From: Alphaproteobacteria bacterium
GTDB lineage: Bacteria; Pseudomonadota; Alphaproteobacteria; Rickettsiales; UBA8987
Length of the DNA: 64,000 nt
Reading direction: 5' to 3'
Assembly: GCA_030429725.1 (NCBI GenBank)
Contig: JAUIEX010000001.1
Location: 3,684-67,683, forward strand
This document shows, piece after piece, positions 3,801 through 53,782 of the stretch (its first letter is position 1; each line of letters opens with the position of its first letter). Position numbers and translations under genes: made by a program. The notes under the pieces are model-generated. The model was not told where the DNA came from. It made no database searches and was given only the letters and a program-made list of their open reading frames with translations.

Positions 3801-5271
3801 ACAGGCAGAATGTTCCTGGCACCGTAATCTGTGGGAAAGTCTGCAAACACCCACAGGCTTCGCCTTGCTGGTGTTGGTTGTGACGGCCTTGCGGATTGCT
3901 GCATTGCCGCTGCTGCCCATCTTTTTTGACGAGGCGCAATATTGGACATGGAGCCGGGATATTGACTGGGGTTATTTTTCCAAACCGCCGATAGTAGCCT
4001 GGCTCATCTGGCTTACCACCGAGCCATGGGGGCAATATTCGCCCTTTTTCGTGAAACTGAGTGCACCCATTTTATATGGGATTTCCACCGTTTTTATCTA
4101 TCACCTTGGCAGCACGCTCTCTTCCAGAAAAGTGGGCACTCTTGGCGGCATCTTCTTTCTGACTCTGCCCATCACCACCCTTGGCAGCGCCTTTATTTCC
4201 GCTGATGCACCGCTGGTTTTTTTCTGGACGGTGGCACTTTTTGCGCTGGCAAAAGCACCGCTGAGCGATAAGGATAACTGGTGGCTGGTGGTGGGGCTGA
4301 TGGCCGGCTTCGGGCTTCTGAGCAAATATACGATGGGCATGTTTGCACTCTCCACCTTCATTTTACTCCTCAGCCATGAGGATGAACGCAAGCTTCTGCG
4401 CAACCTTGCCGTCTGGATTGGACTGATGATTGCGGCAGTGATGTTTCTGCCCAATCTTATCTGGAATCTAGCGCATGATTTTGTCAGCTTTCAACATACC
4501 GGCACCAACATGCTGTCGCAGGGTGTCTCGGTAAACTTTACCGGCGGGCTGGAGTTTCTGGCATCACAATTCGGTGTCTTCGGCCCCATCCTTTTCGCCC
4601 TGCTGTTATGGCACGGCCTGCGGTTAAAAACGCTGGCTTCGGAAAATGCCACGCGGTTTTACCTCTGCTTCACTCTGCCCTTGCTGTTTGTGGCAATCAT
4701 CCTTGCCTTCATTTCCGGTGCGCAAGCGCATTGGGCAGCGCCGGCTTACATCACGGGCAGCCTGCTTCTGGCGCATCTTCTGCTTCAAATGAACATGAAA
4801 AAAACCATCCTGACGGTGATAGTCCTGCATGGCGTGCTGGCGATTCTTTTTCCTTTTACACCCATACTGGCAAAGCTATCGCTGAGCGACGCACAGAATC
4901 CGTGGCAGCGTGTAGAGCGCTGGAACGCGCTTGCGCCCATCACCACAAGCCTGCTGAACCAACAGCCGGGGCTGGTGCCACTTACGGATGAACGTAAAAT
5001 CATCGCACCGCTTTCCTACCATTTCCGTCAGAAAGATGGCACACCCTACCCCATCATCAAATGGCATATGGGCGGGCAGATTCATGACCATTACGATCTG
5101 AATTCCAACCTTATGGCTTATGCAGGTTATGATATGTTGTTTATCACACGTCAGCCGGATATCACCCGCCAGCGCCCTTATTTTCGTCAGGCAATCAAGC
5201 TTTACGAAGCAATGATTCACGGTGAAAAATTTTATTTCTATCGCCTGAACCAGTTTCAACCACCACAGTAA
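3781..5271 (+). CDS. ArnT-like glycosyltransferase (GT39/GT83, PMT_2-type), undecaprenyl-phosphate-sugar dependent
   Basis: N-terminal FDEAQYWTWSRDIDWGYFSKPP motif and ~10 TM helices. Overlaps the upstream gene by 20 nt. Confidence 0.8.
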   Translation: MSDPKNKQAECSWHRNLWESLQTPTGFALLVLVVTALRIAALPLLPIFFDEAQYWTWSRDIDWGYFSKPPIVAWLIWLTTEPWGQYSPFFVKLSAPILYGISTVFIYHLGSTLSSRKVGTLGGIFFLTLPITTLGSAFISADAPLVFFWTVALFALAKAPLSDKDNWWLVVGLMAGFGLLSKYTMGMFALSTFILLLSHEDERKLLRNLAVWIGLMIAAVMFLPNLIWNLAHDFVSFQHTGTNMLSQGVSVNFTGGLEFLASQFGVFGPILFALLLWHGLRLKTLASENATRFYLCFTLPLLFVAIILAFISGAQAHWAAPAYITGSLLLAHLLLQMNMKKTILTVIVLHGVLAILFPFTPILAKLSLSDAQNPWQRVERWNALAPITTSLLNQQPGLVPLTDERKIIAPLSYHFRQKDGTPYPIIKWHMGGQIHDHYDLNSNLMAYAGYDMLFITRQPDITRQRPYFRQAIKLYEAMIHGEKFYFYRLNQFQPPQ

Positions 5272-20445: not shown

Positions 20446-20550
20446 TAGACACTGTTGTTAAATTAGGAGATATTTTGTTGCTGGCTTAAATTGCTGCTTC
20501 GCAAGGAAAAGTACGCAACAAAATGTCTCCTAATTTAACAACAGTGTCTA
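20446..20550. repeat. 105-bp MITE-like palindromic element (36-bp arms with one mismatch, 33-nt loop)
   Basis: TAGACACTGTTGTTAAATTAGGAGA at 20446-20470 is the perfect reverse complement of 20526-20550. The arms extend to 20481 and 20515 with one mismatch. Confidence 0.85.
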
Positions 20551-24924: not shown

Positions 24925-26382
24925 TTATTTTTCATCCAATGGCAATGCCTGAAACAATGTCTCGCCATTGCGTAGTATAAGCAACAGAACCGAACCACGG
25001 CCTTTTTCTTCAGCCACTTTCAGCGCGTCCTCAACCACGGCAACATCTTTGGCGGGTTGCTGGTTGATTTCCACCACCACATCGCCGGGGCGTATGCCAC
25101 GCAGCGCTGCTTCCGATTCACGGTTCACCGCCACCACCACCAGACCTTTAGCATCCTCCGGCAGATTAAATTGCTGCTTTAAAATATCATTCACAGGTTT
25201 CAGCACCAGACCAAGCAAGGCATCTTTATCCACCGGCATGCTGGCAACAACTTCTTCTGCGGATTCATCCAACTTCGCAATGGTCACGCTCAATTCCTTC
25301 TTGTCGCCACCACGCAGCACGATGATTTGCGCATCATGCCCCACTTCCGTGCCGGCCACCATACGCGGCAAATCACGCATTTCCATAATATCCTGGCCGT
25401 TATAGGAAAGAATCACATCACCCTGACGGACGCCGGCACGGGCAGCCGGGCTATCTTTCACAACATCCGCCACCAGCGCCCCATGGCCGGATTCCATGCC
25501 AAGACTATCGGCAATTTCCTTCGTTACATGCTGAATTTTAACGCCAAGCCAGCCGCGTTCAATCGTTTGGCCTTCTTTTAGTTGGGCAATGATCGGCCGC
25601 GCCATGCCGGAGGGCACGGCAAAGCCAATCCCAACATTTCCGCCACTGGGGGAATAGATCGCGGTGTTAATACCAATCACTTCACCGTTTAAATTAAACA
25701 TCGGGCCGCCGGAATTTCCGCGGTTAATCGCCGCATCGGTTTGAATAAAATCATCAAACGGGCCGGCATGAATATCCCGCGCTTTGGCAGAAATAATTCC
25801 GGTGGTCACCGTTCCGCCTAAGCCAAACGGGTTGCCGATCACCACCACCCAATCCCCCACGCGGGAGGCATCGGAATCTCCAAAGCTCACATAAGGCAGC
25901 GGCGTATCGGCTTCAATTTTCAGCACGGCCAGATCCGTCTTCGGGTCAACACCCTTGATCTCCGCAGCAAATTCCCGCTCATCATCAAAAGTAACCGTTA
26001 CGGCATCCGCGCCGTCAATCACATGAAAATTCGTCACCACAAAACCGGAGGGATCAATCACAAAGCCGGAACCAAGGGAGCGCGCCTCCCGCTTCATCCC
26101 CTGCCCCATGCCCATGCCGCCGAAATGCTCAAAAAATTCGTTGAAATTTTCAAACGGATGGCCTGGAGGGAACATTTTCTGGCCGCTCTTTGGAACTTCA
26201 CCGCCTATTTTTTTGGTGGTGGAGATATTCACCACCGCCGGCGTCAGCTTCTCCACCTCATCGGCCAGATTCATCGGCACAAGTGAGGGAGAAGCCATGG
26301 CTGAACCCATCATCCAGACCGCCAAAAACCCCGTAAAAATCACTGCAAAAACCTTTTTAAATGATAATTTGATCTGCATCAT
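24925..26382 (-). CDS. htrA: Periplasmic serine endoprotease, DegP/HtrA family, two PDZ domains
   Basis: Signal peptide, catalytic TNFHVI...D...GNSGGPMF, then two PDZ repeats. Start at the ATGATG at 26382. Confidence 0.9.
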   Translation of the reverse strand: MMQIKLSFKKVFAVIFTGFLAVWMMGSAMASPSLVPMNLADEVEKLTPAVVNISTTKKIGGEVPKSGQKMFPPGHPFENFNEFFEHFGGMGMGQGMKREARSLGSGFVIDPSGFVVTNFHVIDGADAVTVTFDDEREFAAEIKGVDPKTDLAVLKIEADTPLPYVSFGDSDASRVGDWVVVIGNPFGLGGTVTTGIISAKARDIHAGPFDDFIQTDAAINRGNSGGPMFNLNGEVIGINTAIYSPSGGNVGIGFAVPSGMARPIIAQLKEGQTIERGWLGVKIQHVTKEIADSLGMESGHGALVADVVKDSPAARAGVRQGDVILSYNGQDIMEMRDLPRMVAGTEVGHDAQIIVLRGGDKKELSVTIAKLDESAEEVVASMPVDKDALLGLVLKPVNDILKQQFNLPEDAKGLVVVAVNRESEAALRGIRPGDVVVEINQQPAKDVAVVEDALKVAEEKGRGSVLLLILRNGETLFQALPLDEK

Positions 26383-35223: not shown

Positions 35224-37323
35224 ATGAGTGTAAATTTTGACGCTGCTTATTACTTAGCACAAAACCCGGACGTTGCTGCCGCAGGCATTGACGCATTAGC
35301 GCACTACCAACAATTTGGTTTTGCCGAAGGCCGTGACCCGAACGCATTTTTTGATACATCATATTATCTGGCGCAAAACCCGGATGTGGCCGCTGCGGGC
35401 ATTGACCCTCTGGCACACTTTAACGCCAATGGCGCAACCGAAGGCCGTGACCCGAACCCCTTCTTTGATACATCTTATTACCTTTCTCAAAATGGTGACG
35501 TTGCCGCTGCCGGCGTGAACGCACTGCAACACTACATTGAAAACGGCGCTACCGAAGGCCGCACCGTCAGTGCTTTCTTCGATGTAACCTATTATCTGGC
35601 ACAAAATGCCGATGTGGCCGCTGCCGGTGTAAACCCACTGCTCCACTTCATTCAGAATGGTGCCGCCGAAGGCCGTGATCCAAATGCAAGCTTCGACATG
35701 AGCGCTTATCTGGCCGCCGACGTGGGCGCTGCTGCTGCCGTAGCCGCGGGCAACACGGCCGGCATCATCAGCGAGCTGGCAACGGATGCCGCTGCACGCG
35801 TGAATGCATTAATCGCTGCCGGAACTTCAGCCAGTGATGCACAAGCGGCTATTAATGCAAATGCCGCAGCAACCAACACAACATCTTCCGGTGGCTCCGG
35901 CGGAACGGCACAAACCGGCAAGGTTGGCGCTACTGTTGCTACCGGCAACACCACGCTGACACTGGCCGGCGCTTCCGATGGCAACGTTGTGGTTGACCTG
36001 ACCAAAGGTACGGGCGCTACGGACGTTGTTGTGGATAATAGTGAAGATGTTATCCGCACCGGCGCCGGAACATACACCGCCGGTACAACCATTAACGTGA
36101 ACGCCGCCACCATGACTAATGGCTCATTGACGGTGACAACGAACGGCACCGGCACACCAACCATCACAACAGGTATTACCGCCACCACTGTGAGCGGCAC
36201 GGCAACTGCCGCCAACGTGGATGCAGAAGTGCTGGCCGACGATACTGCACTGACACTTTCCGGCGCCACAAACTACACCGTGACCAATATGGAAGGTAAT
36301 GTTGTTGCAACATCTCTGACAGGCACATTGGCCGTGACCACAGACGATGCTACGGATGACGGTATCTCCATTACCACCGGTTCCGGCGCAACCAGCCTGA
36401 CAGCAAATAATGCTTCCGACACGGTAACCGTTGTTGCAACAGCACTGGCCGATGGCACGGCACTGACAGTGGCCGCCGCTTCGGCTTCTGATCTGACCAT
36501 CACCGGCCTGCAAGGTGATCTGGTAGCAACCAATCTTTCCGGTGATTTGAGCGTAACTTCCGTTGCCGTTGCAACGCAGTCTATCGCCACGGGTTCAGGC
36601 ACCAACACCCTGACTGCCGACGCGCTGACCGATGGTCAGGTGCTGACAGTGACCGGTGATGATGCCGCAACGGTTACATTGGTTGCCGGTGACCTGGCAG
36701 CCGGTGCTTCCACCGGCGACCTGACCGTTACAGCCACCACGGGTACCAACGTGATTACAACCGGTGACGGTTCCGATACCATCACAGGTGGCACGGGCGA
36801 CGATAACATCACTGCCGGTAACGGTGTTGATACCATTCAAATCGCCTTTGGTGGTGAAGGTGAAGATACCTTCACAAGCTTCACCGTGGGTGCCGGTGCC
36901 AACCGTGATATCATTGATTTCACCGGTGCAACCGATGTTGCCAACGTTTCTACGGCTGGTGGCTTTGTTCTGCAAGCTAACGCGGATAACGCCAACACGG
37001 CGGCCACGAACGGCTTAACCATCATTGACAATAATGATGGCGCCAACACCAGCGCCACCGACCTGACGGTTGGTAACGTTGCGACTTATCTGGCAGATAC
37101 GGATGCCGGCGGCGCTAATACGGATGCGATTATTTATGAAAACATCAACTCCATCATTTACTTGATTGTTTCCGACGGTACGGATTCTGCCTTGTTCAAG
37201 GCGGATGCAACCGGTAACGGTGACACGGTGATTGACTCCAACGAGCTGACACTGATCGGCACTTTTGCCGGCATTACCGACGCCGGCACGATCACGGCAG
37301 ATAACTTCGCAGACTTTGCGTAA
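35224..37323 (+). CDS. Large secreted repetitive protein: N-terminal 38-aa tandem repeats, T/A/G-rich beta-helix-like core, RTX-like GGxGxD segment
   Basis: GGAGG ribosome-binding site. Four and a half repeats of FDxxYYLAQNPDVAAAGxxxLxHxxxxGxxEGRDPNxF. TGDGSDTITGGTGDDNITAGNGVDTI at ~36760-36840. Strong terminator follows. Confidence 0.8.
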   Translation: MSVNFDAAYYLAQNPDVAAAGIDALAHYQQFGFAEGRDPNAFFDTSYYLAQNPDVAAAGIDPLAHFNANGATEGRDPNPFFDTSYYLSQNGDVAAAGVNALQHYIENGATEGRTVSAFFDVTYYLAQNADVAAAGVNPLLHFIQNGAAEGRDPNASFDMSAYLAADVGAAAAVAAGNTAGIISELATDAAARVNALIAAGTSASDAQAAINANAAATNTTSSGGSGGTAQTGKVGATVATGNTTLTLAGASDGNVVVDLTKGTGATDVVVDNSEDVIRTGAGTYTAGTTINVNAATMTNGSLTVTTNGTGTPTITTGITATTVSGTATAANVDAEVLADDTALTLSGATNYTVTNMEGNVVATSLTGTLAVTTDDATDDGISITTGSGATSLTANNASDTVTVVATALADGTALTVAAASASDLTITGLQGDLVATNLSGDLSVTSVAVATQSIATGSGTNTLTADALTDGQVLTVTGDDAATVTLVAGDLAAGASTGDLTVTATTGTNVITTGDGSDTITGGTGDDNITAGNGVDTIQIAFGGEGEDTFTSFTVGAGANRDIIDFTGATDVANVSTAGGFVLQANADNANTAATNGLTIIDNNDGANTSATDLTVGNVATYLADTDAGGANTDAIIYENINSIIYLIVSDGTDSALFKADATGNGDTVIDSNELTLIGTFAGITDAGTITADNFADFA
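35236..35691 (+). repeat. Four tandem 114-nt (38-aa) coding repeats, with a degenerate fifth unit after them
   Basis: Units begin FDAAYYLAQNPDVAAAGIDAL, FDTSYYLAQNPDVAAAGIDPL, FDTSYYLSQNGDVAAAGVNAL and FDVTYYLAQNADVAAAGVNPL. Confidence 0.9.
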
Positions 37324-40049: not shown

Positions 40050-40112
40050 TTAAAAATCATGCTCAAAGCCGCCTTCTGGCGGCTTTGTTGCGTCTGGCGC
40101 ATCGTTGAGCCA
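40050..40112. repeat. Orphan 63-bp perfect duplicate of the thiL 3' end
   Basis: Identical base for base to 41038-41100 (TTAAAAATCATGCTCAAAGCCGCCTTCTGGCGGCTTTGTTGCGTCTGGCGCATCGTTGAGCCA). Contains a 9-bp hairpin, AAAGCCGCC-TTCT-GGCGGCTTT. Confidence 0.95.
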
Positions 40113-41037: not shown

Positions 41038-41100
41038 TTAAAAATCATGCTCAAAGCCGCCTTCTGGCGGCTTTGTTGCGTCTGGCGCATCGTTGAGCCA
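41038..41100. repeat. The 63-bp direct repeat copy that forms the functional 3' end of thiL
   Basis: Identical to 40050-40112. Encodes the ...KPPEGGFEHDF-stop end of thiL. Confidence 0.95.
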
Positions 41101-46727: not shown

Positions 46728-46812
46728 AAGATTAGACAAATTTCTTGAAAATAGACCCGCTATTCTCTGCAAAATTTTCTTTGTTCTTTAGCAAAATCAA
46801 TCTCATGGCAAA

Positions 46813-46840
46813 ATATCTCCTAATTTAATAACAGTGTCTA
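46813..46840. repeat. Solo arm of the 20446-20550 palindromic element
   Basis: ATATCTCCTAATTTAATAACAGTGTCTA matches the arm sequence with one substitution. No intact partner arm nearby. Confidence 0.65.
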
Positions 46841-49372: not shown

Positions 49373-50206
49373 ATGGTGAATTTGTTCAAGGACTATAACA
49401 GGAGCGTGAAGCTTCCGCTTTCGCGGGACCGTCTGCCTTATGTGGACGAACTTCCCATGCTGCTTTCATGGCTGCTGGTCTACCCACTTTCAAAAACGTC
49501 CTGCCGTCCAGAATGGTTGGTTTTGCTCGGTTTCATCTGCCGTGTGGGGGTTGGCATTTTATGCACCACCGGGCAGGCATATGATGCGCTGACGATCATT
49601 CTTTTACTGGCCTCCGTCATTTTGGATTATGCCGATGGTCAGCTGGCACGCTACACAGGCCAAGTTTCCGATAAAGGCGGGCTTTATGATTTAGCATCGG
49701 ATTTTTTTGGCAGTTTCATTATGTTTGGTGGGATTTTCTTTGCTCTGATACAGCAACCTGACGCACCACTGACGGGTGATATTTTACTCTGCACCGCTGC
49801 CTTATTTGCCTACTACATTTCCTGCACGATTGCGTCTTTCACGCGTTTTCGCTGGGTGGCACACATGCGCGGAACCTCAACGCAACGCATTCGTCGAAAA
49901 TTTATTTTCGGGCAGGACGAGGCAGCACAACGCGCTCCTACATCACACAGTCATGGGTTGGTGTTGCGCCTGTTCCGCATCAGCTGGATGGCAATTTCCC
50001 GTTTGTTACTGGCATTTCCAGTATGGCGGAACCGGCCTTTTCATCCTGCAATGCTGCATCTTTACGCCTTTGGCTTTTTAAGTATTCATTGGTTTTTTCT
50101 GGCGTTTACGCTGGTGTTTAGGTTGCCACTGGAAACTTTCCTGTGGGGAGAGATCACAGTTTGTCTGGCATTATCATCAATCGTATGGCTGACGGAGCGA
50201 TCATGA
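49373..50206 (+). CDS. CDP-alcohol phosphatidyltransferase family membrane protein, specificity unknown
   Basis: Exact family signature D-x2-DG-x2-AR-x8-G-x3-D-x3-D (DYADGQLARYTGQVSDKGGLYDLASD). Polytopic. Confidence 0.72.
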   Translation: MVNLFKDYNRSVKLPLSRDRLPYVDELPMLLSWLLVYPLSKTSCRPEWLVLLGFICRVGVGILCTTGQAYDALTIILLLASVILDYADGQLARYTGQVSDKGGLYDLASDFFGSFIMFGGIFFALIQQPDAPLTGDILLCTAALFAYYISCTIASFTRFRWVAHMRGTSTQRIRRKFIFGQDEAAQRAPTSHSHGLVLRLFRISWMAISRLLLAFPVWRNRPFHPAMLHLYAFGFLSIHWFFLAFTLVFRLPLETFLWGEITVCLALSSIVWLTERS

Positions 50207-50253
50207 TGACAATGGTTCGAACTATGGGAAAAACATGCTATCATAGGCAAATT

Positions 50254-50544
50254 ATGAACCTGCAGGAATTACGAGACAATTACCGCGAAGATATCCTACG
50301 CATTGCGGCGAAATACGGGCTGACGAATGTGCGCGTGTTCGGCTCCGTTGCACGTGGTGAGGCCACGGAAAACAGCGATGTGGATCTGCTGGTCACGGCC
50401 ACAAAGCCGCTCACACTATTTGACACGTCCTCGTTTCAGCTGGATGTTGAGGATCTGGTGCACAAGAAAGTACAGATTAAGACCGATGATTATCTCAACC
50501 CGCTGATTAAAGAAAGTATTCTTGAAGGAGCGCGGCTGCTGTGA
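50254..50544 (+). CDS. mntA: MntA-type minimal nucleotidyltransferase antitoxin
   Basis: GSVARGEATENSDVDLLV (GS-x-G...D-x-D). 96 aa from the ATG at 50254. Confidence 0.85.
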   Translation: MNLQELRDNYREDILRIAAKYGLTNVRVFGSVARGEATENSDVDLLVTATKPLTLFDTSSFQLDVEDLVHKKVQIKTDDYLNPLIKESILEGARLL

Positions 50545-50870
50545 AGGATAATTATACGTATCTTCAGCATATCATGGAAGCGATTGAGAAAATTGAAAAA
50601 TACATCGCTGAGTACGGCAGAATTGACGTTTCTCAACAGGCGATTGAACGGAATATTGAAATCATCGGCGAAGCAGCAAATAATCTTTCACTGGAATTTC
50701 GCCAAACATTTCAAAATATTCCATGGCGCAAAATCATCAATATGCGCAATATTATCATTCATGATTATATGGGCATTAACCCGCTACAGATTTGGGAAAC
50801 GGTGGAAGTATATATTCCTGAACTCAAACAACAAATTTCTGCTATACTTAGAAATAGAGAGGAGACCTAA
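50541..50870 (+). CDS. hepT: HepT (DUF86) HEPN-domain RNase toxin
   Basis: R-x4-H motif (RNIIIHDY). GTG start overlaps the mntA stop (GTGA). Confidence 0.85.
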   Translation: MKDNYTYLQHIMEAIEKIEKYIAEYGRIDVSQQAIERNIEIIGEAANNLSLEFRQTFQNIPWRKIINMRNIIIHDYMGINPLQIWETVEVYIPELKQQISAILRNREET

Positions 50871-50873
50871 CCC

Positions 50874-52802
50874 ATGCCAAGCTACAACGCGCCGATTAGA
50901 GATTATCAATTTGCCCTAAATGAATTCCTTGAAATTCAGCAATATCAGGGTGTTGTGCCCGGTTATGATGATCTTTCGATTGTTGACCCTATTTTGGAAG
51001 AAAGCGCGCGCTTCTCGCAGGAAGTGCTGTTTCCGCTCAATCAAACGGGCGATGAGCAGGGTCTGAAATATGGCACGGACGCGGATGGAAGAGGCACGGT
51101 GACCCTGCCAGATGGCTTCGTGGATGCTTATCAGGCTTATGTGGAAGCGGGCTGGCCCAGCTTTGCCTGCGACCCGGAATATGGCGGGCAGGGCCTGCCA
51201 CATGTGGTCAACACACCGCTGATTGAGATGATCTGCTCCGCCAATCTTTCCTTCGGCCTGCTGCCCGGCCTGACCCATGGCGCCTATACTGCGCTGCATT
51301 TATTCGGCACGGATGAGCAAAAACAGCATTACCTGCCCAAGCTCACCAGCGGGGAATGGACGGGCGTGATGTGCCTGACGGAGCCTCAGGCCGGGACGGA
51401 TCTTGGCTTGCTGCGCACCACCGCCACCCCCAAAGATGATGGCAGCTATGCCATTAACGGCACTAAGATTTTTATCAGCTGTGGGGAACAAGACGCCACC
51501 CCAAACATCATCCATCTCATCCTCGCCCGCCTGCCCGGCGCGCCGGAGGGTGTCAAAGGCATCAGCTTATTTGTTGGCGCAAAATATAATCTGGATGCAA
51601 ACGGCGAAATGGCGGAGCGGAATAACATCTCCTGCGGCTCGTTTGAACATAAAATGGGCATCCATGCCAGCCCCACCTGCGTGATGAATTATGATGATGC
51701 CAAAGCGTATCTGGTGGGTGAACCGCATAAAGGCCTGCGCGCCATGTTCGCCATGATGAACGAAGCGAGATTGCTGGTGGGCATGCAGGGGCTGGGTGTG
51801 GCAGAAGTGGCCTATCAGAACGCCCTTGAATATGCCAAGGAGCGTTTGCAAGGACGCGCCTTAAAAGGTGCTGCATTGCCTAATAAACCGGCAGACCCCA
51901 TCACCGTGCACCCGGATGTGCGGCGCATGTTGCTGACCATGAAAAGCTTCACCGAAGGCGCGCGCATCCTTGCCTGCTGGACGGCGCTGCATGTGGATTT
52001 CAGCCATAATCACCCGGATGAAGAACAACGCGCGGGGTCCGATGAATTTGTGCAGCTGATGACACCCATCGTCAAAGCGCATCTGACCGAGGAAGGAACG
52101 CGCACCGCCAACACCGCCGTGCAGGTGCTGGGTGGCTATGGCTACATCAAGGAATATGGCGTGGAACAATATCTGCGTGATGCCCGCATTGCCGAAATTT
52201 ATGAAGGCACGAACGGCGTGCAGGCACTTGATCTGGTGGGGCGCAAGCTGGGCATGAATACCGGCCGCCTGCTGCGCCGCTTCTTCCACCCGGTGGAAGC
52301 ATTCATCACCGAAAATCGTGACGTGCCGGAGATGGCGGAATTCACCAAGCCGCTCTATCAGGCGTTCCGTTCACTCCAGCAATCTTCCATGTGGATCGCG
52401 CAGAAAGGTCTTTCCAACAAAGATGAGGCCGCCGGTGCTTCGGCAGATTATCTGCGCCTGTTCAGTTTGGTCACGCTTGGCTATATCTGGGCGCGTTCAG
52501 CGAAAATTTCTTTGGAGAAGTTGGGTAAGTTCCCCCCCACCGAGTCACTACGCTCCTCGACTCCCCCACAGGTGGGGAGTAATAGTTCCGCGTCCCTTAA
52601 CTCCCCCTCGATGGGTGAGTCTGATTCTGGAACAGAATCAGGTGGGGGTGAAGAGATCGACTCCGACTTCTACGAAGCCAAACTCGCCACAGCGCGTTTT
52701 TACCTTAACAAGATCCTGCCCGAGCATTACAGCCTGATCGCCAAAATTGTTGCCGGCGTCAAGCATCTGGACATGCCGGAGGTGGCACTCAAATCCGCTT
52801 AA
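50874..52802 (+). CDS. Long-form acyl-CoA dehydrogenase (~600-aa family) carrying a ~43-aa in-frame insertion in the C-terminal domain
   Basis: ACAD N-terminal, middle and C-terminal domains (GVMCLTEPQAGTDL, EIYEGTNGVQALDLVGRK) plus a C-terminal extension ...FYEAKLATARFY. Confidence 0.9.
   Translation: MPSYNAPIRDYQFALNEFLEIQQYQGVVPGYDDLSIVDPILEESARFSQEVLFPLNQTGDEQGLKYGTDADGRGTVTLPDGFVDAYQAYVEAGWPSFACDPEYGGQGLPHVVNTPLIEMICSANLSFGLLPGLTHGAYTALHLFGTDEQKQHYLPKLTSGEWTGVMCLTEPQAGTDLGLLRTTATPKDDGSYAINGTKIFISCGEQDATPNIIHLILARLPGAPEGVKGISLFVGAKYNLDANGEMAERNNISCGSFEHKMGIHASPTCVMNYDDAKAYLVGEPHKGLRAMFAMMNEARLLVGMQGLGVAEVAYQNALEYAKERLQGRALKGAALPNKPADPITVHPDVRRMLLTMKSFTEGARILACWTALHVDFSHNHPDEEQRAGSDEFVQLMTPIVKAHLTEEGTRTANTAVQVLGGYGYIKEYGVEQYLRDARIAEIYEGTNGVQALDLVGRKLGMNTGRLLRRFFHPVEAFITENRDVPEMAEFTKPLYQAFRSLQQSSMWIAQKGLSNKDEAAGASADYLRLFSLVTLGYIWARSAKISLEKLGKFPPTESLRSSTPPQVGSNSSASLNSPSMGESDSGTESGGGEEIDSDFYEAKLATARFYLNKILPEHYSLIAKIVAGVKHLDMPEVALKSA
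52527..52655. repeat. Intragenic palindromic element, same family as 692-966, read in frame within the acyl-CoA dehydrogenase
   Basis: Terminal inverted repeat TTCCCCCCCACC (52530-41) against GGTGGGGGTGAA (52641-52), 11/12. Internal hairpins at 52560-52580 (7 bp) and 52621-52641 (9 bp perfect). Confidence 0.65.
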
Positions 52803-53782
52803 GCGCCAAACATGCGCTGATATTGCCGTTGGATAATCCGCCGGCGGTTCCACAGCAGCAGCGCGTGTAGATATTCCAGCGGGTAATGCACGGCCTTGCT
52901 CAAAAAGCGCTTATAGGGCGTTGCCTTCACATAATGCTTCTGAGTGGAATCCTCCGAAAGAAGTTGCCACAAACGCGCATAATTTTTCGGCAATGGTATC
53001 TTCCGCGCCGCATCCGAAGCATGCGTCTTGCGGGCAAATAAAATGGTGCCCTGATATTCCGGCCGCGCTTCCACCGTAAAGCCTGCTTTTTCCAACGTGG
53101 CAGCCAGTGTCGCGTGATTGAAATTGTAAATATGCGCAAAATGAAACCGGTTGGTGGGGGAATGATTGCAAGCCTCAATATCCGGCACATCCACCGCAAT
53201 CAGCCCGCCCGGCTTCAACCATGAATGCAGAAGGGATAACGCCTCAAAAGGACTGCGCAAATGCTCCAGCACGTGGTTGAGCGTAATCACATCATAGCTT
53301 TCGGCAGGAATATCTGCCTTTTCCAATGGCGCATTAACCACCGGAATCTCATAATGTTTCCCGGTATAATTGGCATAGCCTTCATGCGGTTCCAGCCCTT
53401 CCGCTTCAAAGCCGTGCAAGCGTGCAAGCGTTACAAACTCACCGCTGCCACTGCCAACATCCAGTAATTTACCTGTTGCCACAAAGCCCAGCAGGCGCGA
53501 AAGCCGCTCCAGCCCACCCCGGCTATAGCGCAGCACATGCTTGCGTTTTGGGCGCACCGCACCCTTATAATCATCCCGATATTGCTTTTTATAATAAGCC
53601 TGAAGCTCCGCCTGTGATGGAATCGGTTCACTATGCACCATGCCGCACCCGGTACAGATCACCGTGGTCAGCGCCTGATAATGCCGCCCGGTATGGCTGA
53701 GAATCCGCGCCTCTGAATCACCGCAAATGCCACAAGACTCCTGCGTTTTTATAATTTCTCCAACCGAAACATCCTGCACCAT
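52799..53782 (-). CDS. Class I SAM-dependent methyltransferase with an N-terminal Cys4 zinc-ribbon
   Basis: CGICGD...CTGCG, then motif I LLDVGSGSGEF. ATG at 53782 preferred. The 3' end overlaps the convergent ACAD stop by 4 nt. Confidence 0.8.
   Translation of the reverse strand: MVQDVSVGEIIKTQESCGICGDSEARILSHTGRHYQALTTVICTGCGMVHSEPIPSQAELQAYYKKQYRDDYKGAVRPKRKHVLRYSRGGLERLSRLLGFVATGKLLDVGSGSGEFVTLARLHGFEAEGLEPHEGYANYTGKHYEIPVVNAPLEKADIPAESYDVITLNHVLEHLRSPFEALSLLHSWLKPGGLIAVDVPDIEACNHSPTNRFHFAHIYNFNHATLAATLEKAGFTVEARPEYQGTILFARKTHASDAARKIPLPKNYARLWQLLSEDSTQKHYVKATPYKRFLSKAVHYPLEYLHALLLWNRRRIIQRQYQRMFGA

Follow-up and report, generated by a model that had tools for sequence, protein, structure and literature searches.

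A stretch of 64,000 nucleotides (nt) from an Alphaproteobacteria bacterium of the order Rickettsiales (GCA_030429725.1, contig JAUIEX010000001.1, positions 3,684 to 67,683), referred to here as the window, contains a gene for a long-form acyl-CoA dehydrogenase (ACAD) that is interrupted in frame by 41 extra codons. We conclude, with a probability of roughly 0.75, that this segment is a non-autonomous copy, old and in part decayed, from a family of modular palindromic mobile elements with full-length members that bear the nuclease domain DUF559. As the original prediction had proposed, the segment is homologous to a second insertion in the thiC gene of the same window, and the two are in-frame members of one palindromic family, as seen with a profile built outside this genome and with copies found elsewhere. 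Those other copies have the same modular architecture, are distributed over many genomes, survive in frame inside unrelated enzymes, and physically enclose DUF559 in five places. The ACAD copy itself is decayed, and its value lies in the family that it exposed. Ever since the Rickettsia palindromic elements (RPEs), palindromes that lie in frame inside essential genes have been a curiosity, and we know of no enzyme that spreads them.

The ACAD segment is an insertion

The ACAD open reading frame (ORF) carries four Pfam domains (Acyl-CoA_dh_N/M/1 and Acyl-CoA_dh_C). It was aligned with 16 orthologues of 584-611 residues, compared to 642 in ACAD, at 61-77 % identity computed over aligned positions. 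A loop of 4-5 residues takes the place of the segment in these orthologues. The closest PDB structure, 8pns_A (E 2e-181), aligned with ACAD residues 1-551 and 591-632, and its own numbering passed from 550 to 553 across the gap. The segment is a true insertion, absent from the 16 orthologues and from 8pns_A, and ACAD is otherwise collinear with its family, as had been claimed. It had also been considered that the segment might align to ordinary linker sequence in orthologues, and the short loop found there speaks against this. The best bounds of the insertion are 52530-52652 (123 nt, 41 codons).

The slightly longer interval 52527-52655 translates to KFPPTESLRSSTPPQVGSNSSASLNSPSMGESDSGTESGGGEE, and a peptide stretch of the insert region reads LNSPSMGESDSGTESGGGEE. 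The 41 inserted residues are of low complexity, have no Pfam match, and do not include an intein splicing (Hint) domain. In the AlphaFold model, residues 558-592 had a confidence (pLDDT) below 50, and the insert was bracketed by helices at 516-550 and 597-614, both with a pLDDT of about 95. The prediction thus places the insert in a disordered surface loop that connects two confidently modelled helices of the C-terminal domain.

The element is a dimer of a two-hairpin unit

The unit of the family is a half-element of about 50-60 nt that consists of a first hairpin (H1), a second hairpin (H2), and a GGTGGGGG tract. H1 has the form ACTCCCCC-N4-5-GGGGGAGT and is essentially invariant in sequence. 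H2 lies directly 3' of H1, has a stem of about 9 bp with a 3-4-nt loop, and is followed by GGTGGGGG (CCCCCACC in the other half). Among 30 halves of equal length, the sequence of H2 was free and its pairing was kept, with two-sided changes in 7 of the 9 pairs and one-sided changes of the G-U type in none. The covariation score of H2 was 0.34, compared to 0.11 when shuffled (0 of 500 reached 0.34) and at most 0.09 in controls with slid partners. Since H2 lacks G-U intermediates, a constraint on a DNA hairpin or cruciform is favored over one on RNA, and an RNA-level function of the element is disfavored.

Half-elements were found as dimers in two arrangements. Type A, of which 49 pairs were collected, reads H1-H2-G ... 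C-H2'-H1', with H1 on the outside and the G- and C-tracts inside, and the thiC copy belongs here. Type B reads TTGTCCCCCCACC-H2'-H1'-spacer-H1-H2-GGTGGGGGGACAA, with the C- and G-tracts on the outside, and has an extended inverted repeat of its own. Nine clean type-B cases were seen in metagenome loci among the matches listed, each with flanks unique to it. Their spacers were 18 nt in four and 42-45 nt in four others, and one of 79 nt was also found; the ACAD spacer is 19 nt. The ACAD dimer arrangement thereby recurs in other family members. At a further locus (L181, 28-370), five half-elements stood in direct tandem with a 57-nt period, which indicates that the unit also forms head-to-tail arrays.

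The modules of the ACAD and thiC copies are listed in Table 1. All base-level statements that had been made about the ACAD segment were reproduced: its ends, TTCCCCCCCACC and GGTGGGGGTGAA, are complementary at 11 of 12 positions, its nested hairpins are present, and 52598-52624 is identical to thiC 697-723 at 22 of 27 positions. The ends had been called terminal inverted repeats; since the ACAD element is a type-B dimer, they are more precisely its C-tract and its G-tract, and its arrangement is permuted relative to the thiC copy. Both 52560-80 (full sequence ACTCCCCCACAGGTGGGGAGT) and 52600-20 fit the family H1 with 1-2 mismatches each. The right half has a perfect H2 followed by its tract; in the left half, the C-tract is kept and H2' is decayed. 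Folded as single-stranded DNA, the ACAD element had a z score of -3.1 and the thiC element one of -5.9, and Rfam covariance models returned no match at E <=1 in 52300-52900.

Table 1. Coordinates of the ACAD element, its host gene, and the thiC sister copy (positions in the window)
Feature	Start	End	Strand	Description
ACAD host gene	50874	52802	+	Long-form acyl-CoA dehydrogenase, 642 residues, intact, bears the insertion
ACAD element	52530	52652	+	123-nt type-B dimer: C-tract, H2', H1', spacer, H1, H2, G-tract; in-frame 41 codons
Left terminus, C-tract	52530	52541	+	TTCCCCCCCACC; family consensus TTGTCCCCCCACC
H2' hairpin, decayed	52542	52559	+	GAGTCACTACGCTCCTCG; ~4 bp of pairing left
H1' hairpin	52560	52580	+	ACTCCCCCAC/AG/GTGGGGAGT; perfect but for one G missing
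Spacer between both H1 hairpins	52581	52599	+	19 nt
H1 hairpin	52600	52620	+	ACTCCCCC/TCGAT/GGGTGAGT; 7/8 bp; reads SPSMGES
H2 hairpin	52621	52641	+	CTGATTCTG/GAA/CAGAATCAG; perfect 9-bp stem and 3-nt loop, the family geometry
Right terminus, G-tract	52641	52652	+	GGTGGGGGTGAA; from direct reading and type-B comparison
thiC sister copy, type A	698	843	+	thiC C-terminal tail, beyond the end of the ThiC_Rad_SAM match
thiC H1	699	719
thiC extra hairpin	733	753
thiC H2	753	771
thiC G-tract	772	779
thiC C-tract	792	801
thiC H2'	802	820
thiC H1'	821	843

The window holds two copies

The ACTCCCCC octamer occurs five times in the 64-kb window, compared to 1.29 expected, and all five lie inside the thiC and ACAD insertions. 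An nhmmer profile was built from 214 distinct half-elements, all from other genomes with the window excluded. It matched thiC twice (E 1e-7 and 1.7e-4). Two further matches, at 52583-52533 on the minus strand (E 4e-6) and at 52598-52648 on the plus strand (E 3.5e-3), lay in the ACAD segment, and none fell elsewhere in the window. An apparent third copy at 25850-25880 was rejected as a chance match; it falls in a conserved part of a gene that, judged from its translation, encodes a DegP/HtrA-type protease. The thiC copy also contains an additional hairpin between H1 and H2, ATTCCCCC-CTGGT-GGGGGAAT, that is absent from the family consensus.

These data bear on the simplest alternative, which is that ACAD has a native linker at this place, specific to the lineage and low in complexity, with a likeness to thiC that is a compositional coincidence. 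Loop length does vary among the orthologues, and one of them, P0100, also has a longer loop. We nevertheless find this explanation barely credible, since an ordered, full set of modules fits a profile from other genomes, the termini of the element coincide exactly with the bounds of the insertion, and the peptide PPTES..STPPQ recurs in unrelated enzymes of another genome.

Distribution and in-frame survival of the family

A 25-nt pattern that fits both window copies, ACTCYCCCNNNNNGGGKGAGTCTGA, was scanned against 596 Gb of sequence comprising one genome per bacterial or archaeal species. Twelve matches were found, compared to about four expected by our own estimate; the window's own genome, which the pattern would match twice, is not in this collection. 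Eleven were in the metagenome-assembled genome (MAG) CAZPQM01 ("uncultured Rickettsiales bacterium", GCA_964588995.1) and one was in the MAG JAIRUP01 ("Rickettsiales bacterium"). CAZPQM01 contains at least 11 full copies with one layout, which are palindromes of 121-131 nt (or 201 nt). They begin with (T)AACTCCCCCCTTGCGGGGGAGT, which is H1, then H2 and GGTGGGGGG; a variable centre comes next, and CCCCCCACC, H2', and GACTCCCCCGCAAGGGGGGAGTT(A), which is H1', complete the element. These copies are nearly identical, and a rare TTGC loop is present in the H1 of 20 of 23 CAZPQM01 half-elements. Direct comparison with copies at L079, L080, and L085 showed that the decayed ACAD H2' is still like their GAATCGCGCAAGCGCTCTTCG type, GAATCGCGC..GCGCTCTTCG, and that the encoded peptide is the same in both (PPTESLRSSTPPQ in ACAD and PPTESRKRSSTPPQ in CAZPQM01).

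Four of the 11 CAZPQM01 copies are in frame inside genes, namely those for DnaE, a class-I aminoacyl-tRNA synthetase, CarB, and a FadB-like enzyme, and all four read NSPLAGESE..SGGG..PPP..STPPQGGSY. The other seven are intergenic, which answers the question of whether such copies exist. Modulo 3, the lengths of the four in-gene copies all fall into one class, while every class is represented among the seven intergenic ones. The CAZPQM01 orthologue of ACAD (72 % identity over aligned positions) has a different hairpin-rich insertion at another site. CarB (L083) and DnaE (L079) of CAZPQM01 contain a second, unrelated in-frame peptide family, represented by RSLIENDSSHLQEQSNS in one of these proteins and by RLIENDRSHFQDQSTF in the second. 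Yet another family of hairpins, CTCCCCCCGCTTGCGGGGGGAG, is present at L076, L077, and L079; the ACAD orthologue P0044 (L001, 4034-4288) has a hairpin related to it, CTCCCCCCGTAAACGGGGGGAG.

Metagenomes were searched with a stricter pattern, H1 followed by 10-40 nt and then GGTGGGGG. Among the matches listed, the family was present on at least 120 contigs with a host GC content of 30-69 %, and ACTCCCCCCTTGAGGGGGAGTC was the commonest H1 (83 of 154 cases). As a control, H1 alone was searched in viral contigs; of the 72 unrelated hairpin matches obtained, one had a G-tract and none had DUF559. The resemblance to thiC is therefore not an isolated coincidence, as the family is found in CAZPQM01, in JAIRUP01, and on these metagenome contigs.

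This distribution also bears on the possibility that the ACAD segment is an RPE proper, inherited within the Rickettsiales. RPEs are likewise palindromes of 100-150 nt that lie in frame in unrelated housekeeping genes (PMC10969869), and both MAGs of the genome collection that carry the family are labelled Rickettsiales. The family is not restricted to that lineage, however, since its hosts cover 30-69 % GC and several phyla, and its oligo-C/oligo-G hairpin termini do not have the CGTC tag that RPEs are reported to carry (PMC3733652). We regard an RPE proper as highly improbable.

When all loci are taken together, 20 of the 58 full elements lie within ORFs that are open for at least 60 residues on either side. 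Further in-frame hosts are XseA, CysRS, TatD, LigA, ArgRS, RecN, TruB, RsmD, Fmt, and RNase HII. Both window copies had been noted to be read in the frame that yields NSPxxGES. The ACAD frame (PPT.. TPPxGG.. SPxxGES.. GG) was also used by the in-gene copies of other genomes, in 10 of 11 cases for type A and 6 of 7 for type B, and it is stop-free in just 48 % of type-A and 67 % of type-B readings. Together, the biases in frame and length suggest that the survivors have been filtered for length and for a hydrophilic reading rich in Ser, Pro, Gly, and Glu. A peptide-profile search for proteins that contain the translated element returned two short ORFs, with candidates limited by the word index. 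Two explanations had originally been offered for the pair of in-frame copies in the window. Selection of frame-preserving insertions is the better supported, given the length classes in CAZPQM01. Recent activity is not supported for this genome, as the four H1 hairpins of the window are all different, none of them has the consensus sequence, and the pairing of one H2 has been lost in part. Since all four H1 copies differ, compared to the common TTGC loop in 20 of 23 CAZPQM01 halves, the window copies appear to be old.

Another possible explanation for the survival of the insert is that it has been kept because it is useful, either as a flexible protein module or as a regulatory mRNA or DNA structure. 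The bias towards the SPxxGE/PPT reading exceeds mere openness of the frame, and the element has persisted despite decay of its sequence, both of which would fit such a role. On the other hand, the segment is predicted to be disordered, the host enzymes and the insertion sites are unrelated to one another, and the H2 pairing in ACAD has decayed on one side. The lack of G-U pairs in H2 speaks against an RNA structure in particular. Usefulness is thus a very unlikely reason for its retention.

Full-length members enclose DUF559

At 4613-5045 of locus L083 (CAZPQM010000018.1), the termini of the family enclose an in-frame DUF559 domain inside CarB (PF04480, E 9e-38). The position of this domain is intein-like but no splicing domain accompanies it, and the CarB gene holds two or three more in-frame insertions. 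The same layout of termini, DUF559, and termini was present at four more loci (L086, L135, L164, and L090), giving five places in all. At L135 and L164, the entire element of about 450 nt is open from end to end. In distant phyla, the enclosed ORF fills the variable centre, with its start right after the G-tract and its stop right before the C-tract. The CAZPQM01 copy with DUF559 has the TTGC loop at both termini, which is the same genome-specific H1 variant as in the short copies. The ORF inside the termini was DUF559 in every case examined and never RAYT, in loci that were not systematically screened for Y1 transposases.

Diverged but analogous termini were also found around DUF559 genes elsewhere. 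One such gene lies in an Alteriqipengyuania genome. Three others, from Patescibacteria, Aminicenantes, and another lineage, were chosen since their ORFs stop short of the flanks, and all three had analogous diverged termini, with H1 and the G-tract directly 5' of the ATG and the C-tract and H1' directly 3' of the stop codon. In 67 of 120 DUF559 homologues, the ORF extends into translated hairpins (TPPLRGS, SSPLAGEEG, PLSPxPSPARGEG).

The closest solved structure to DUF559 is 3hrl (E 4e-22), to which no function is assigned, and PADLOC gave marginal matches to DpdF and to a type II methyl-directed restriction enzyme (E ~1e-4). DUF559 is a nuclease of the Vsr fold, placed in one PD-(D/E)XK clade together with Vsr and with I-Bth0305I, a homing endonuclease (PMC3424549). 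[quoted passage not shown]

Escherichia coli also has a DUF559 gene near a repeat. At locus L210 (1351039-1351840 of strain K-12, NC_000913.3), the ycjD gene (1351407-1351760) ends over a C/G-rich hairpin. About 150 nt 3' of it lies a dispersed repeat, GCCCCTCTGGGGAGAGGGTTAGGGTGAGGGG, with a duplicated 3' end of ycjD between the gene and the repeat. This repeat is present in 5426 of 5426 complete E. coli genomes at a median of 16 and a maximum of 29 places per genome. Its layout, H1 followed by TAGGGTG(A/G)GGG, is that of the DUF559 termini in other phyla. It is probably the repeat called BoxC.

A possible mechanism and points against it

We infer that a DUF559 nuclease acts on the hairpin termini, on DNA, and so drives copying of the element into new sites. 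It would recognize the invariant H1 and the G-tract, and H2 would serve as a structural spacer. Nicking or cleavage by DUF559 would then promote copying, and the short forms would be deletion derivatives served by DUF559 in trans. In our reading, the ACAD element inserted into its host gene and is translated there as a disordered stretch rich in Ser, Pro, Gly, and Glu. It survived because its length is a multiple of three, its frame is stop-free, and its site is a loop that joins two helices. Both window copies would now be inactive fossils.

Various observations weigh against a mobile family served by DUF559. The window copies fit the profile just moderately (E 4e-6 to 3.5e-3), and tblastn found no DUF559 in the 64-kb window, where the ACAD and thiC copies are both of the ORF-less form. 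A true DUF559 ORF was present in just 3 of 120 metagenome loci among the matches listed. A PD-(D/E)XK nuclease alone is, to our knowledge, not a known transposase, and we know of no transposition chemistry for DUF559; it could be carried along as a passenger, or be a neighbour that the repeats prefer. The proposed mechanism leaves the origin of the type-B arrangement unexplained. A search for terminal duplications had been suggested, and at 46 type-A copies no consistent direct duplication was found; the flanks instead extend the palindrome in a lineage-specific manner. No target-site duplication and no pair of empty and filled sites was resolved among the copies compared, so that transposition or homing of the element is a proposal.

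It is therefore conceivable that the family is real but that DUF559 is not its mobilizer. Some other transposase, such as a Y1 enzyme of the RAYT type, or host recombination or replication slippage at hairpins could have spread the repeats, with DUF559 along as a passenger or favored neighbour. The head-to-head and tail-to-tail dimers and the tandem array at L181 mirror the behavior of REP/BIME sequences, which is attributed to RAYT processing (PMC3733652), and the scarcity of DUF559 among the metagenome loci and its lack of a known transposition chemistry also agree with this view. We consider it unlikely for several reasons. The DUF559 ORF sits exactly in the variable centre, with its start and stop abutting the tracts, in distant phyla; genome-specific H1 variants agree between the DUF559 copy and the short copies; the GTAG tag is absent from the consensus; and no transposase ORF adjoined the copies inspected, in loci that were not screened systematically.

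Beyond the family represented in the window, we tentatively suggest a wider reading that we hold to be possible rather than probable. DUF559 (YcjD/Vsr-like) nucleases might be the enzymes of a previously unrecognized and very widespread class of minimal selfish elements of about 450 nt, open from end to end and with oligo-C/oligo-G hairpin termini. The ORF-less derivatives of this class would be REP-like palindromes, possibly including E. coli BoxC, that lie repeatedly in frame inside essential enzymes.

In the literature on DUF559/YcjD, Vsr-type homing, and BoxC, we found neither such an element nor any linkage of DUF559 to repeats described, and both the repeat family and its DUF559 link are apparently undescribed. 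The family agrees with RPEs in behavior and with REP/BIME/RAYT systems in organization, and it departs from both in its sequence modules, in its unit of two hairpins plus a tract, in how wide its range of hosts is, and in the DUF559 gene that it encloses. It combines RPE-like behavior in many phyla with a cleanly modular anatomy and a physical coupling to a small nuclease, one for which there are a solved structure (3hrl) and a member in E. coli (YcjD). Together, these properties make an old question open to bench experiments. If the proposal is true, DUF559, a large family, gains a function, in-frame palindromic insertions gain a mobilizing enzyme, and the RPE phenomenon is generalized across phyla. 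In MAGs, insertions of this kind can also mislead gene calling, the annotation of domains, and the alignment of proteins.

Other features of the window

Directly 5' of ACAD, at 50143-50870, are overlapping nucleotidyltransferase-like and DUF86/HEPN-like ORFs that, judged from their translations only, have the look of a toxin-antitoxin pair. A separate, AT-rich palindrome is found at 20446-20550 and 46809-46840. Its 36-nt arms (TAGACACTGTTGTTAAATTAGGAGATATTTTGTTGC) are 97 % complementary and 33 nt apart, and a third arm stands alone at a distance of 26 kb; the element has the look of a MITE-like family of its own. At 40050-40112 and 41038-41100 are the two copies of a 63-nt direct repeat, perfect and with a terminator-like hairpin (AAAGCCGCCTTCTGGCGGCTTT), which lie 988 nt apart on either side of a 288-residue ORF. 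Finally, four tandem repeats of 114 nt (38 residues), with 61-74 % identity, occupy 35235-35665 at the start of a 699-residue ORF (35224-37323).

Comparison with known systems

Homing endonucleases of the Vsr fold (the I-Bth0305I family, PMC3239194) are akin to DUF559 in that both belong to the same PD-(D/E)XK clade. The nuclease domain at L083 also lies in frame in CarB, as an intein-borne endonuclease would. In contrast to homing endonucleases and inteins, the present family has no intron or intein splicing modules, and it has many dispersed targets and not one homing site.

Bacterial MITEs, such as the Coxiella QMITEs (PMC5896051) and Correia elements, are similarly non-autonomous and foldable, have terminal inverted repeats, and occasionally form in-frame fusions with host ORFs. 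The present family differs from them in that neither a DDE-transposase parent nor a target-site duplication was detected in it, and its candidate parent is about 450 nt long and open from end to end. The repeat near E. coli ycjD has an H1-type hairpin followed by TAGGGTGAGGGG, as do the DUF559 termini in other phyla. Unlike those termini, it has no H2, is diverged in sequence, and lies about 150 nt from ycjD without tightly flanking it.

RPE-1 to RPE-10 (Ogata et al. 2000, as summarized in PMC10969869 and PMC3733652) resemble the present family in being palindromes of about 100-150 nt that lie in and between genes, in frame in many unrelated housekeeping genes, with a recurrent encoded peptide and apparent tolerance at permissive protein sites. 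In-frame insertion into housekeeping genes is thus common to both. RPEs are reported to be CGTC-tagged and to have no associated enzyme, and CGTC-type REPs seem to have no transposase dedicated to them (PMC3733652). The consensus of the present family has no CGTC at either hairpin end. The present family differs from RPEs in its GC-rich oligo-C/oligo-G modules, its two dimer arrangements, its hosts of 30-69 % GC, and its DUF559-bearing relatives.

The REP/BIME/REPIN-RAYT systems share with the present family short hairpin units, head-to-head and tail-to-tail dimers, arrays, and a small enzyme gene between inverted units alongside many ORF-less copies. Intragenic REP copies have also been documented (PMC3733652). 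The two differ in their building blocks, as the consensus of 30 halves of the present family has no GTAG tag and its unit is composed of two hairpins and a G-tract. They also differ in the enzyme, which is an HUH/Y1 transposase in RAYT, whereas the present family encloses a DUF559 nuclease of the PD-(D/E)XK type.

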